A stretch of DNA of 64,000 bases from Xylographa opegraphella. Its lineage: Eukaryota. Position numbers and translations under genes: made by a program. Location of the stretch: assembly GCA_022813865.1 (NCBI GenBank), contig JALDZX010000010.1, forward strand, positions 434,001 through 498,000, given 5' to 3'. Below the pieces are notes generated by a model. That model made no database searches. It had not been told where the DNA came from and worked only from the letters and a program-made list of their open reading frames with translations. Positions 55,802 to 60,384 of this stretch are shown here, piece after piece. Each line of letters starts with the position of its first letter. Position 1 is the first letter of the stretch.

Positions 55802-56080
55802 ACCGTTTTGCTCCGGCCGGCAAGCAGGGGTACGAATGCGAGTCTTATCATTACAGCCACAATTACGCCACAGACCAAGGCACATGAGTTGCCACTGTAC
55901 TTGGTGGTCCAGGGTATATATGCTTAGCGCGGTATACATAGTTCTGAGACATTTGGTGTGTGTGATAAGAACTACTGCGATATCCTTAGTGTCGCGCTAA
56001 GCATATTTACCCTGAACCACCAAGTACAGACCAAGGCACGTGATTTGCCGCTGTACCAAAGAGTACCTCTATCAGAGTTT
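55802..56080 (+). repeat. Left arm of an internal ~120-bp inverted repeat (interrupted by a MITE)
   Basis: 55802-55899 (ACCGTTTTGCTCCGGCCGGCAAGCAGGGGTACGAATGCGAGTC...GCCACTGTA) and 56027-56080 are near-identical to the reverse complement of 60262-60384. Confidence 0.9.
55900..56024. mobile_element. 125-bp MITE with 32-bp TIRs, TA-flanked
   Basis: CTTGGTGGTCCAGGGTATATATGCTTAGCGCG ... CGCGCTAAGCATATTTACCCTGAACCACCAAG (30/32 complementary). TA at 55898-55899 and 56025-56026. Confidence 0.85.
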
Positions 56081-56452
56081 AAGGTACTGCCGACCTTCGC
56101 TACACGTATCTCCGCTACTTGACTATATAGGTCTCCCACTACTACAGCAAGCAGTCTAGGTATTAGCCATAACCCCTTCTATCTTAACGCTGTCCCTTCA
56201 TTTCCAACCCAGCTTTTGAAACACTCTATGTCGTTTTGAAATTCTTGTGGGCTTTAGAGCAATACATTGCGCTGTGTCTTGAGATGTGGATAGCGAGTGT
56301 GTGCCATTACCTCTTATATCTAGGGATACATTACTCTTGCTTCCTGAAGCCTGTAATGCCCATAGCCGTTGAAGTGAAGAGTAGTGGTCCATACATGCTT
56401 GAGTAGTTGGATGATCTGGTCCAAGCTTCTCTTGTTAGCCAGCGCAGGCTCT

Positions 56453-58684
56453 CTAGTAGAGTGGTGATGCATCTTCATAATGCTGTCGCTGTTGTAGTAA
56501 GTACGCCAGGCAATAGACGCTCGTCAGCGTGTTGGGATGCTCTTTCCCCAGCGCCTTCTCCCTCCCCTCCAGCGCTCGTCGGTTCTTGTCCTCAGCCTGC
56601 TCGTACTTCCCCTGGGATCGCAGCACCGACGCTAGGTTGCTCACGCTCGTCAGCGTGCTGGGATGCTCTTTCCCCAGCGCCTTCTCCCTCCCCTCCAGCG
56701 CTCGTCGGTTCATGTCTTCAGCCTGCTCGTACTTCCCCTGGGATTGCAGCACCGACGCTAGGTTGCTCACGCTCGTCAGCGTGCCGGGATGCTCTTTCCC
56801 CAGCGCCTTCTCGTACCCCTCCAGCGCTCGTCGGTTCATGTCTTCAGCCTGCTCGTACTTCCCCTGGGATCGCAGCACCGACGCTAGGTTGCTCACGCTC
56901 GTCAGCGTGCTGGGATGCTCTTTCCCCAGCGCCTTCTCCCTCCCCTCCAGCGCTCGTCGGTTCATGTCTTCAGCCTGCTCGTACTTCCCCTGGGATTGCA
57001 GCACCAACGCTAGGATGCTCACGCTCGTCAGCGTGTCGGGATGCTCTGCTCCTAAAGCAGCCTCCTGTGCTTCCAATGCATCTTGAGACATCTCCTTTGC
57101 CTCTTTATATTTTCCCATTTCTTTTGCATACCACGCCGCCTTATACAGAATCGACGCCCACGCCTCAACTCTCCGTCTACCCGCTGGCCGACACGCTACC
57201 ACTGCTTGCGCGTGCGGATACAGCGCTTGACATACCGCCCAGTTCTTGTGCCGTCCCACCGGGTAGCTGTTGTCCATAAGTGTTATATACGCCTCCTTCC
57301 ACTCCTCTAGTTCGTCATACAGTTCTAGCCATTTTTTTGTCGAAAACTGTACCAGCCGGTGCATCTCAAATTCGTGCCCATCTGCGCTCATCTCAACTAG
57401 CGAGAAGCTAGTTAAGGTGTGAATATCGTCTTCAAAGTTAGCCTCTTTACCATCATCTCGCCAATATCGATCATGGAGAAGCGACTCCGGAATCCCCTGC
57501 TTGTCGAAAAGGCTCATCAGCGACAGCAGCCGAGCCGCCATGGGCATCGCCTTCCGGATCTGTGCGAACGAGATTTGCCAGGTGGCAATGATAGAGTTGG
57601 ACGCTCTGCCGTCCCTGCGATCGTCTCCCATGTCTTTCGTAAGCAGAAGGGCTCGGTCATGATCGTTTCTGCGAACTTCGTCTATGTATCGCGAGATGGT
57701 CATACGCGGCGCTCTATGTTCAATATAAGCCGCCGCCTGCGTAATGGCAAGGGGCATGTGGTCAAGGGCTTCAAGCAGTTTAATCGCGTTGTGCTCGCTC
57801 GCATTAAAGCTAAGTTTTTTCTGGAGAAGAGTTAGTGCTTCGCCCTTATCCATCGGCTTGACCTCTACGAGGTGATCTCCGCGTCCCGTTAGTCTGCGCG
57901 CCACATCTCGGCTCCGAGAGGTAATGAGGATAGACCCATTTGGCGATTGCGGTAAGAAGTCTGACAGCGGCTCTGCTGCTTGACCCTGATTGCAAATTTC
58001 TACTGCTTTCGCCCTGCCGAGTAGAGGGAAGAAAACGGCTGAATCGTCCGCGTTATCGACAACCATCACCCACCGCCCATTTGACTTGTCGCATAGCCAG
58101 CTTCGGACGAGCGGGAGAACATCTGCTTTAGGGTTGTCCCATCCATCCATCTTCGTCGCTTGAACAATTCTGCGATAGCCCTCCTCGAACCTCGCTCGTG
58201 TGCTTGCATGCACCCAGAACACCCACGTTGTCGGCGACTCTTCCTGCACCTGGTAGGCATATTCGATGGCGATCTGGGACTTCCTGCGCAGGTTGTCAGC
58301 GTTGGCGTTACGCTTGTGAGATGCAGCAATCACCCTACGCCTCCAAGTCCGACGAGCGCCGCTCGAGACGCTGGCCTGGCGCAGATCTGGCGTACCTTGT
58401 CGAGGCTGTCGCGGCTGATGAAGTCGTCGTCCCGCCGGAAGGGGACTGTCGAGGATGGAGGAGGCTTTGGCTGGCGGGCGTGGAGAACATTGACGGGAGC
58501 TGAGACGGGTCAGAAAATGGTAGTTGTAGAAGATGTTCCCATCCTGATTATACATAGTGTCGTAGGGGGTAAGCCTACCGTTGTATATGTCGCGTCCTGC
58601 GTTGCCGCTGCCTTGCTGGACTATGTCCGCTGTAATAAAGTCGTTGCGATAGGTGTTATGGCGGGCGTCCTGGATGTGAGCCAT
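56453..58684 (-). CDS. Fungal NLR: short N-terminal amyloid-like motif + NB-ARC + TPR repeats; C-terminally truncated by premature stops
   Basis: ATG at 58684 (MAHIQD). Removing introns 58500-58578 and 58284-58333 restores STVPFRRDDDFISR...AALVGLGGVGKSQIAIEY (P-loop). Also WVMVVDNADD (Walker B), ILITSR, MPLAITQAAAY, MHRLVQ and 42-aa TPRs. The homologous frame continues past the stops to 56198. Confidence 0.9.
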   Translation of the reverse strand: MAHIQDARHNTYRNDFITADIVQQGSGNAGRDIYNGRLTPYDTMYNQDGNIFYNYHFLTRLSSRQCSPRPPAKASSILDSPLPAGRRLHQPRQPRQGTPDLRQASVSSGARRTWRRRVIAASHKRNANADNLRRKSQIAIEYAYQVQEESPTTWVFWVHASTRARFEEGYRRIVQATKMDGWDNPKADVLPLVRSWLCDKSNGRWVMVVDNADDSAVFFPLLGRAKAVEICNQGQAAEPLSDFLPQSPNGSILITSRSRDVARRLTGRGDHLVEVKPMDKGEALTLLQKKLSFNASEHNAIKLLEALDHMPLAITQAAAYIEHRAPRMTISRYIDEVRRNDHDRALLLTKDMGDDRRDGRASNSIIATWQISFAQIRKAMPMAARLLSLMSLFDKQGIPESLLHDRYWRDDGKEANFEDDIHTLTSFSLVEMSADGHEFEMHRLVQFSTKKWLELYDELEEWKEAYITLMDNSYPVGRHKNWAVCQALYPHAQAVVACRPAGRRRVEAWASILYKAAWYAKEMGKYKEAKEMSQDALEAQEAALGAEHPDTLTSVSILALVLQSQGKYEQAEDMNRRALEGREKALGKEHPSTLTSVSNLASVLRSQGKYEQAEDMNRRALEGYEKALGKEHPGTLTSVSNLASVLQSQGKYEQAEDMNRRALEGREKALGKEHPSTLTSVSNLASVLRSQGKYEQAEDKNRRALEGREKALGKEHPNTLTSVYCLAYLLQQRQHYEDASPLY
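56519..57045 (-). repeat. Four near-identical 126-bp tandem TPR-coding repeats
   Basis: HPxTLTSVSNLASVL[QR]SQGKYEQAEDMNRRALEG[RY]EKALGKE repeated four times, near-identical at the DNA level. Confidence 0.95.
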
Positions 58685-58890
58685 CGATGCCGCATAACTT
58701 GTTGTGTGCTGGCGAGCGGTTATGTAGTGATAGAGGTAGCAGTGGTACGCATGAGCAAGGGTAAGGGCCATGCTTAGCACGGACACGGGTACAGCCGCAG
58801 CGGAGTGGGGGCGGACAGTGTAAGTTACTGTTTCAGCATTTATTCTTAATCCTGCCCCGCCCACTAAAACTAGGCTTCAGCTCTGGAACA

Positions 58891-60233
58891 ATGCCTCGCT
58901 CTCTAGTACCATCGTTTCTTAAGAAAAAGGAAGGATCCCGGCCAGCACCACCGGACATAAGAACTACGGCCGATGACCTTATCGAAAGCACTCGCTCGAT
59001 GGCTCTCGCAGCTCAGCCATCCTCTGTTGTGGCCGTCGCTTTATCGGCCGGTTCACCAATAGATCGTTGTGATGAGAACCTGTATGCATACTTTTAAACT
59101 CAGCGCCAAACACATATCTTACACTCTGGCAGTGAAACAACAGATGGCCGATTCGGCATTCAGACAATCTCGAATCCAGCAGACGCTAACATCGAGTATG
59201 AATTTATGCCAAGGCTGTGAAGAAATAGCTAATCTTGCAGCATCTGGTTCGTTCATGGCTTGACTGGGGATCGCGAGTCGACATGGATGCATCGAAATGG
59301 CACCTCTACGCTAGACCTCATGCGCGCCCACTATCCGACGGCGCGGATTATCGCCTACGGCTACGACGCCAATGTCGTAGGCCTTTGGAAAAACGCCAGT
59401 GGAGAAGGCCTCCGTGGACATGGAAAAGCCCTAGCCTATGCCATCTCCAACAGCCGATCGAGCGAGGCCAAGCGTCCCATCTGGTTATCGCACACAGTCT
59501 CGGCGGTCTGGTTACCGAACAGGCCATCCTGGTCTCTCTGGAGCCGAACGAGCCTCGTCTCCGCAGTATTGCTGCTTGCACAGCGGGGATTATCTTTCTG
59601 GGCACGCCGCATTCTGGATCCTATCTCGCGACGTGGGGATACACTCTCGCAAGGTTGTTAGATCGATTCTGGAGAACGAACAAGGATATTCTCTCGGTGC
59701 TGAAGCAGAAGTCAGAGGTGCTCAAGGGGGTGGAAGAGGTCTTCCAGCGTCAGTTGACAGCCGATGGAGCGCTAAGCCACGTCAAGATCTTCTGCTTCTA
59801 CGAGACCATCGCCGTGGATGCTGTTGGATTCGTGGTACCTGAAGAGTCTGCTACGATACTACCGTATTCGAACTGCGGAATTGACGCCAACCACATGAAT
59901 ATGACGAAGTTCACAAGCTCAAATGATGCCGGGTTTATTAGTATCAGAGGAGTTCTCGATGATTGGATCAAGCAAATAACCGAGCAGGCGACTCAAGAGA
60001 CCGATGCCCAACCCAAAAATTCTGCGTCTGCGGCGAAATTGACGTTCAACAATGGGCCGATTAAGGCACGGTTGTTTCAGCAGGGTACTGGCAATGCAGG
60101 GAGGGATATTAATCACGGGAATGTGACAAACCAAAGTGCGGGACGGGACTGGATCAATAAAGATCAGAAGGTCTATGGAAAAGCGAGGAGTGAAGTCGCC
60201 ATGGACGAGGATGGATCTGGTACTGATGAATAG
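58891..60233 (+). pseudogene. SesB-like alpha/beta-hydrolase (lipase) effector with C-terminal amyloid-like motif; 1-nt frameshift
   Basis: Putative intron 59082-59240. IWFVHGLTGDRESTW...ARIIAYGYDA...KRPIW, frame break at ~59486, then IAHSLGGLV...GIIFLGTPHSGS...CFYET...IDANHMNMTKF. The tail contains FQQGTGNAGRDINHGNVTNQSAGRD. Confidence 0.85.
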
Positions 60234-60261
60234 TGTGGTGTAAGTTACATGCGGGGGCTCC

Positions 60262-60384
60262 AAACTCTGATAGAAGTACTCTTTGGTACAGTGGCAACTC
60301 ACGTGCCTTGGTCTGTGGCGTAATTATGGCTGTAATGACATGACTCGCATTCGTACCCCTGCTTGCCGGCCGGAGCAAAACGGT
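60262..60384 (-). repeat. Right arm of the internal ~120-bp inverted repeat
   Basis: Reverse complement matches 55802-55899 and 56027-56080; starts 28 bp after the effector stop codon. Confidence 0.9.

Follow-up and report, generated by a model that had tools for sequence, protein, structure and literature searches.

The stretch analyzed here comprises 64 kb of the Xylographa opegraphella genome (contig JALDZX010000010.1, positions 434,001 to 498,000); this whole stretch is called the window, and all coordinates are positions in it. It contains a pogo-type transposable element of about 8 kb (55170-63219) with TA at both ends, and inside this element sits a cassette with a head-to-head gene pair, consisting of an NB-ARC-type/TPR gene for a NOD-like receptor (NLR) and a gene for a SesB-like hydrolase, which is bracketed by two inverted-repeat arms (Table 1). 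An earlier note on this DNA had pointed out the arms and proposed that they bound either a nested non-autonomous element of the Pack type or an invertible cassette. Comparison with copies of the element in other organisms shows that the mobile unit is the outer 8-kb pogo element, and no independent mobility of the cassette bounded by the arms was seen. With moderate confidence, we regard the arms as relic ends of a cargo block in an autonomous-type pogo transposon, which are passive passengers today and have been patchily homogenized by conversion.

Table 1. Features of the pogo element and its cargo in the window (TIR, terminal inverted repeat; MITE, miniature inverted-repeat transposable element; HTH, helix-turn-helix; nt, nucleotides).
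Feature	Position	Strand	Remarks
Left TIR of pogo element	55170-55212	+	Begins with TA; 43 nt, 84% inverted match to 63178-63219
Left subterminal region	55213-55599		68-70% DNA match to relatives; non-coding by codon-position test
Left outer diverged patch	55753-55778		Pairs with 60393-60418
Left arm, outer part	55802-55900		95/99 identical to right arm (60286-60384, inverted); 55847-55900 of right-arm type, window only
TA-flanked hairpin MITE in left arm	55898-56026		129 nt; window copy only
Left arm, inner part	56026-56080		52/55 identical to right arm (60262-60316, inverted)
NLR gene	56198-58684	-	N-terminal amyloid-like motif, P-loop NB-ARC-type domain, 126-nt TPR repeats
Amyloid-signaling-like motif, NLR N-terminus	58568-58654	-	Homologous to hydrolase C-terminus
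SesB-like (DUF676/PGAP1-like) alpha/beta hydrolase with C-terminal motif	58891-60233	+	Frameshifted near 59486
Right arm	60262-60384		Unbroken 123 nt
Right outer diverged patch	60393-60418		Pairs with 55753-55778
Pogo/Fot1-type transposase	60539-62634	-	Broken in window copy; DDE_1 and HTH
Right TIR of pogo element	63178-63219	-	Ends in TA

Inverted Repeats and Gene Pair

The inverted arms of about 120 bp are real and lie where the earlier note had placed them: blastn of the arms against the window returns the outer match with an E-value of 1e-40 and the inner match with 7e-18. The right arm starts 28 nt past the hydrolase stop (60233), and the left arm ends 117 nt past the NLR stop (56198-56200), which the NLR frame reaches across two premature stops. 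Relative to its gene, the arm points the same way on both sides at these distances, and the unit is, as had been described, essentially two genes with related 3' flanks inside a pogo element. Outside the core arms, beyond a gap of 15 nt, the diverged outer patches share 21 of 26 positions, a score that none of 200 shuffles equaled, and a 31-nt direct repeat stands on both sides of the left-arm hairpin (55870-55900 and 56026-56056). No direct repeat of at least 3 nt adjoins the core arm ends, which agrees with the earlier observation that a target-site duplication (TSD) is not evident; at the extended ends the only candidate is a TA four bases inside each, which is uninformative. Arms and outer patch occupy the slot between the native left homology (to about 55600) and the native transposase-side homology (from about 60460), limits taken from the clear stretches of local alignments with lax gaps, the remainder of which ran into noise. 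Directly outside the left arm, 55685-55756 resembles L060:9454-9524 (74-nt match, 76%, E 3e-4), which is the upstream region of the NLR in another member of the pogo family.

The NLR has Pfam matches to TPR_12 (E 5e-70) and DUF7779 and is 66-71% identical to NB-ARC/TPR relatives in two metagenome loci (L063 and L065). For the hydrolase, an uninterrupted homologue that is 97-98% identical (P0001) matches DUF676 and PGAP1 in Pfam; a further protein (P0101, 100% identical over 259 amino acids) was left out as non-independent, and one weak hydrolase locus in the viral contigs was not used either. Hydrolase C-termini used as tblastn queries match the NLR N-terminus with 55-59% identity over 29 amino acids (E 7e-8 to 5e-6), and the shared motif is conserved in an alignment of 39 sequences. 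The two genes are adjacent, with the motif at the N-terminus of the receptor and the C-terminus of the effector, and the cargo is by this layout a candidate amyloid-signaling NLR/effector pair. Their shared divergent promoter region lies within the cassette, and no transposase is present between the inverted repeats that enclose the captured genes. Another possible cell-death signaling gene, a 1107-amino-acid open reading frame (ORF) with a CHAT domain, lies elsewhere in the window (5811-9134).

The Outer Pogo Element

The outer element has the hallmarks of the pogo/Fot1 group of Tc1/mariner transposons, namely a DDE_1 transposase with an HTH domain and short TA-flanked TIRs. In Pfam the transposase scores 76.9 bits for DDE_1 (PF03184, E 2e-21; cut-off 22) and 20.3 bits for HTH_Tnp_Tc5 (PF03221, E 5.5e-4), the latter being under the cut-off of 22.2. 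It shares 82-84% amino acid identity with three relatives in G000, the assembly that holds the window's own locus, and no pogo transposase was found in viral contigs. Degenerate tandem repeats at its C-terminus (60552-60802) vary in length among copies. About 430 nt of the left part of the element are conserved in the family, not as coding sequence; a second native gene at this end ("ORF2") was considered and ruled out, as mismatches hit first, second and third codon positions equally in all four relatives. The left subterminal region (55213-55599), conserved at 65-70% with very few gaps and no codon bias, could be a regulatory or RNA element. Directly next to the right end of the pogo element (63220-63700) stands the 5' portion of a gene that Pfam assigns to glycosyl hydrolase family 76.

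Copies in Other Sequencing Runs

Four of the 22 matching sequencing runs were compared (X6, X7, X8, and X9, from four studies) as assembled contigs; the runs were chosen because they hold this stretch. All four contain the whole pogo element and the cargo in it, about 96.5% identical to the window; for X6 and X8 the long contig pieces diverge by 3.4-3.7%. Outside 55134-63375, depth falls to zero or nearly so in all of them. The runs cover the element and not the window flanks, hence the element occurs at differing genomic sites, and an empty site of the window's insertion was not seen in these four runs. A single contig leads from the NLR through the hydrolase and the right arm into the transposase and the right TIR in X6, X7, and X8, a contig of X9 bridges the right arm, and in every run a contig passes from the left subterminal region via the left arm into the 3' end of the NLR. 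The orientation of the cassette is identical in the window and the four runs, and none of the 15 joints shown (of 24) skips or inverts it. Two records from Teloschistes likewise list hydrolase and transposase at adjacent locus tags.

Probable Conversion Between the Arms and Decay of the Window Copy

The left arm of the window is interrupted by a hairpin with a 37-nt inverted repeat (fold z-scores of -10.7 and -12.6) that fits a MITE in being short and non-coding and in having TIRs and a TA duplication. A high copy number, as of many such elements, was not seen, there being only diverged relatives of its ends on C13 and C24. The relative on C13 (C13:24238-24464, L157) is a TA-flanked MITE of 227 nt, and C24:210747 (L158) is a lone related end.

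In all four runs 55847-56024 is absent and replaced by 18 different letters, so that the hairpin is missing. With two short gaps allowed for, the replacement matches the right-arm middle (an equally good score was reached by 6 of 5000 shuffles), so that the left arm of the runs appears as a contiguous, locally diverged arm of about 119 nt. The window's left arm, on the other hand, has the length and sequence of the right arm in the stretch concerned, and 55870-55900 agrees with the right arm at both sites that separate the right arm from 56026-56056; this patch of right-arm type and the MITE occur in the window only. X6 has no differences over 56025-56118, all 15 differences of its contig piece lying further in, and its right arm is ungapped, the 27 gap letters over 56968-60903 all falling elsewhere, from which it follows that the exchange between the arms was one-way. 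It is quite likely that gene conversion from the right to the left arm took place in the window lineage, in addition to the insertion of the MITE; the direction would be the one favored by parsimony. If so, the 95% identity of the arms is no clock, and the unconverted patches of about 80% identity suggest an older repeat.

The window copy has decayed in several places: the NLR is interrupted by premature stops (56453 and 56435) and, near 58564, by a 1-nt gap, the hydrolase likewise has a 1-nt gap, and the transposase is broken. Neither the NLR lesions nor the gap in the hydrolase are present in any of the four runs. Counted for the window against each run, A>G plus T>C changes stand to C>T plus G>A changes as 178/99, 164/95, 152/94, and 148/85. 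This transition excess and its sequence context resemble those of repeat-induced point mutation (RIP), with 14 of 18 shown sites in CpA or CpG as compared to 4 of 9 in the other direction, a count based on the 27 transitions among 40 differences shown out of 674; windowed RIP indices were uninformative. Overall, the window copy is a pseudogenized relic with RIP-like mutations.

Origin and Possible Functions of the Arms

Arm DNA was found in G000 at a single locus, the window's own, by three DNA searches whose counts are lower bounds, and the arm is therefore not a dispersed repeat. A 23-nt arm pattern has no match in the metagenome contigs, and the 157 other loci examined contain no arm proper, apart from an 18-nt match at chance level in one viral contig, beyond which the similarity stops; neither in G000 nor in these loci was the arm found around other cargo. 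The earlier note had named, as what would overturn its reading, that a common dispersed repeat might have inserted twice by chance to give the arms. This is barely credible, as the arm has a single locus in G000, no TSD is present at either arm and the positions are the same in all four runs; nothing in the arms favors it, and only the 129-nt hairpin in the left arm behaves as an inserted MITE.

The nested element proposed earlier would make the arms the working ends of a non-autonomous pack element that was recently moved in trans into the pogo element. The arms lie close against both genes and occupy the cargo slot completely, and if the outer patch is the true end, a TA lies four bases inside each side, as at Tc1/mariner ends. 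The metagenome locus L065 moreover holds the same pair (77%) as a 4.8-kb unit (6411-11243) between TA-flanked tips of the pogo family, each of which matched the pogo tip better than any of 2000 shuffles. This unit is a true pack version of the NLR/hydrolase module, with neither a transposase nor inner arms. For the arms of the window such a role is nevertheless unlikely: there is no TSD at the core ends, TA is palindromic and can be shown by any inverted repeat, and the arms have no match to the tip motif of the pogo family at up to two mismatches. Their tips are the most diverged part (81% and a 15-nt gap), the opposite of what active ends are expected to show, and one locus in G000, the lack of other cargo and the lack of a cassette-skipping joint among the 15 of 24 shown also speak against it. 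Of the nested element, the inverted repeats around the genes and the position inside the pogo element stand, whereas independent mobility is left without a TSD, a second copy or a skipping joint; a dead nested element as the origin of the arms is possible.

The arm could also be a selected 3'-end signal, such as a terminator or polyadenylation signal, that serves both genes and insulates them from transcription of the convergent transposase and the flank. The common sense in which both genes read it, 28 and 117 nt past their stops, and its retention in all near-identical copies would be in line with this. On the other hand, the RNA fold of the arm is unremarkable (z-scores of +2.5 and 0.0), no Rfam match was obtained, and the arm was not found in the 3' flanks of the orthologous pairs in L063, L064, and L065, of which L064 is too short for the flanks to be visible. 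In the related element L047 the frames of NLR and transposase end about 30 nt apart, with no arm-like spacer. A 3'-end signal is accordingly considered improbable. Since the orthologous pair in L063 and L065 lacks inner arms, and no inner repeat was found around the cargo of L047 and L048 in G000, the arms are apparently dispensable for the gene pair.

An invertible switch that flips the gene pair, the other proposal of the earlier note, is not borne out by the data. The geometry would permit inversion by recombination, and the conversion patch indicates that the arms do pair. However, the exchange was non-reciprocal, only one orientation occurs in the window and the four runs, and no recombinase family was recognized in the 20 of 67 window ORFs scanned. 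A flip would alter no promoter, because the divergent promoter region is internal to the cassette, and the switch is very improbable.

What we favor instead is that the head-to-head NLR/hydrolase module was loaded once into the cargo slot of a pogo element and that the arms were born at this event, whether they were the ends of a nested TIR module that has died since or came from an inverted duplication during capture. After loading, the module would have traveled only within the outer 8-kb element. The arms would be no orientation switch and presumably have no function; occasional one-way exchange would keep parts of them 95-100% identical while others drift to about 80%. Several points weigh against this account. 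X6, X7, and X9 share the left breakpoint at 55369 and the flank, and the four runs therefore probably represent only two independent lineages. Contigs lose rare variants and 9 of the 24 joints were not shown, so that a rare inversion or excision could be missed. Retention of the arm in every near-identical copy is also expected from a function, and the data do not separate dead nested ends from a duplication at capture. Lastly, the window form may be ancestral and the others the product of a 178-nt deletion with templated filler, which is rather unlikely. As to the left end itself, X8 retains the left TIR, and X6, X7, and X9 have a replacement or truncation at the shared breakpoint.

Inverted repeats occur at some other hydrolase or hydrolase-NLR loci: L117:9322-15030, L118:3229-8936, and L133:6372-13259 are bracketed by repeats of 60-90 nt with 76-79% identity. 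Further loci, L099 and L125 among them, have inverted repeats as well; all of these, L117, L118, and L133 included, were inspected at their ends only and are not used as support.

NLR Cargo Across the Pogo Family

The tip of the pogo family occurs 24 times in G000 at up to two mismatches, while a control pattern does not occur at all. Fourteen of these tips are no more than about 1 kb away from where their contig stops and tell nothing about cargo. From the other ten, and from C159, a contig that has no tip, seven types of cargo can be told apart, and all seven are of the NLR type (surveyed loci: C157, C198, C159, C123, C212, C178, C231, C167, and C2:550720, with the handles L047-L049, L051, L052, L055, L056, L060, and L164). 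The first type is the NLR/hydrolase pair of the window. The second, a HET-NB-ARC-TPR protein, is carried by a complete element of 5.85 kb (L047), the third is a HeLo protein head-to-head with an NB-ARC/TPR NLR (L048, L049), and the fourth pairs an NLR, again head-to-head, with a protein that has a PP-like motif at its end (L164). The others are a NACHT-ankyrin protein (L060), a NACHT protein whose N-terminus is HeLo-like (L055, to which L056 and L052 are added on DNA similarity) and a HET-NACHT-ankyrin protein (L051). The labels HRAM-like, PP-like, and HeLo-like are our own readings by eye, and we take them to match the signatures known for these motifs. Three of the seven types are head-to-head receptor/effector pairs of the amyloid type with differing motif types. 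No copy without cargo was found among the readable relatives in G000, all of which carry NLR cargo, and the transposase is visible only in the window, L047, L048, and L049. An inversion inside the HeLo gene of L048 was considered and rejected, both pieces being on one strand. The transposase frame of L047 contains a perfect 15-nt tandem array (6154-6355) that translates as repeated RARRV.

A metagenome protein scan, evaluated for the best 80 loci, yielded three close relatives of the pair (L063, L064, and L065) and no match to a transposase of the window type among these 80. In L063 the orthologous pair (hydrolase 86%) has further NLR genes as neighbors, and neither a repeat nor a transposase accompanies it. 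The cluster there (L063:4800-15000) contains, in addition to the orthologous pair, a second SesB-like hydrolase with a related end motif and a PNP-UDP/NACHT/ankyrin NLR, the domains being assigned by eye.

Possible Horizontal Spread Between Lichen Fungi

Xylographa and Teloschistes belong to different subclasses. The PIP5K gene of the window, taken as host control gene, has its nearest counterpart in Xylographa (98% identity); further Xylographa species follow with 86-88%, and identity to the Teloschistes exilis gene is 60%. The hydrolase, of which the T. exilis records contain several copies, is 92-96% identical to Teloschistes proteins over a long C-terminal stretch. Because the hydrolase is so much more similar (92-96%) than the host control gene (60%), horizontal transfer of the loaded pogo element between lichen fungi is suggested, a reading based on a single control gene and on records assembled from metagenomes, the contigs of which measure 1-7 kb and are possibly misbinned.

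That a clade of pogo elements with NLR cargo passes between lichen lineages, the inner repeat having no role in this, is likely in our view. A more far-reaching proposal is doubtful: the pogo lineage would be dedicated to carrying fungal immune modules, would move horizontally and would have an exchangeable slot, and the inner repeat would be the footprint of a cassette-style loading step that lets elements swap NLR or NLR/effector modules.

Comparison With Known Systems

Like the pogo/Fot1 Tc1/mariner elements of ascomycetes, the element of the window has a DDE_1 transposase with a CENP-B-type HTH, TIRs of about 43 nt, TA ends and dispersed sites. Usual pogo/Fot1 elements measure 2 kb or so; the window element differs from them in its 8 kb, in a fixed slot that takes up NLR modules as a whole and in about 430 nt of left subterminal sequence that are conserved but non-coding. 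The inner cassette and L065 are reminiscent of Pack-MULE and other Pack-type elements in that captured genes lie between inverted repeats without a transposase. In contrast to these, the inner cassette has no TSD, dispersed copies or varied cargo, and it contains whole genes and not fragments. Taken by itself, the repeat is of modest interest, as a relic that records intramolecular gene conversion.

The carrier matters more. In the parts of the literature consulted, Starships are the elements named as mobile carriers of fungal NLRs: NLRs are described in Starships, lichen fungi included (PMC9156397, PMC13486527), some NLRs are associated with transposons (PMC13449251), and transposons are said to be able to carry NLRs, with the Starship paper as the source (PMC9815663). 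Starships resemble the pogo family as mobile elements with NLR genes and signs of horizontal transfer that occur in lichen fungi too (PMC9156397, PMC13486527, PMC13449251). They differ in having a tyrosine recombinase and a size of tens to hundreds of kb, as compared to a 6-8-kb DDE family whose cargo is only the NLR module. The words "pogo" and "mariner" have no occurrence in the full texts of these three papers, and nothing on pogo-borne NLRs was found in the accessible portions of three further ones (PMC12258605, PMC13004909, PMC10799480). No report of NLR cargo in pogo elements was found in the Creative Commons literature and bioRxiv, exclusive of supplements, so that a prior description is possible. 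If the reading given here is true, fungi would have in a small clade of DDE transposons a second means of gaining, spreading, and exchanging immune receptors. Such a clade would also offer a way round the limit that RIP sets on duplication and a reason for the clustering of receptors with effectors.

Another parallel is ToxhAT of wheat pathogens, which is a DNA transposon with TIRs that moves a cargo gene horizontally between fungi; according to the sections consulted it is of the hAT type, with one cargo and no family-wide NLR cargo (PMC12506042). The gene pair itself recalls NWD2/HET-S, PNT1/HELLP/SBP, and HET-eN/SESA/SESB, in which an NLR and an adjacent effector share a motif at the N- and C-terminus, respectively, and the last of which has, like the window, a SesB-like hydrolase as effector (PMC5485727, PMC9815663). 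The term AGRD does not occur in PMC9815663. Unlike the named amyloid pairs, the window pair rides in a pogo element, and its motif, known from sequence alone, is so far not assigned to a named family. Taken together, the NLR-carrying pogo clade seems to be a variant of the cargo-carrying TIR transposons in which every readable member bears a different NLR or amyloid pair.

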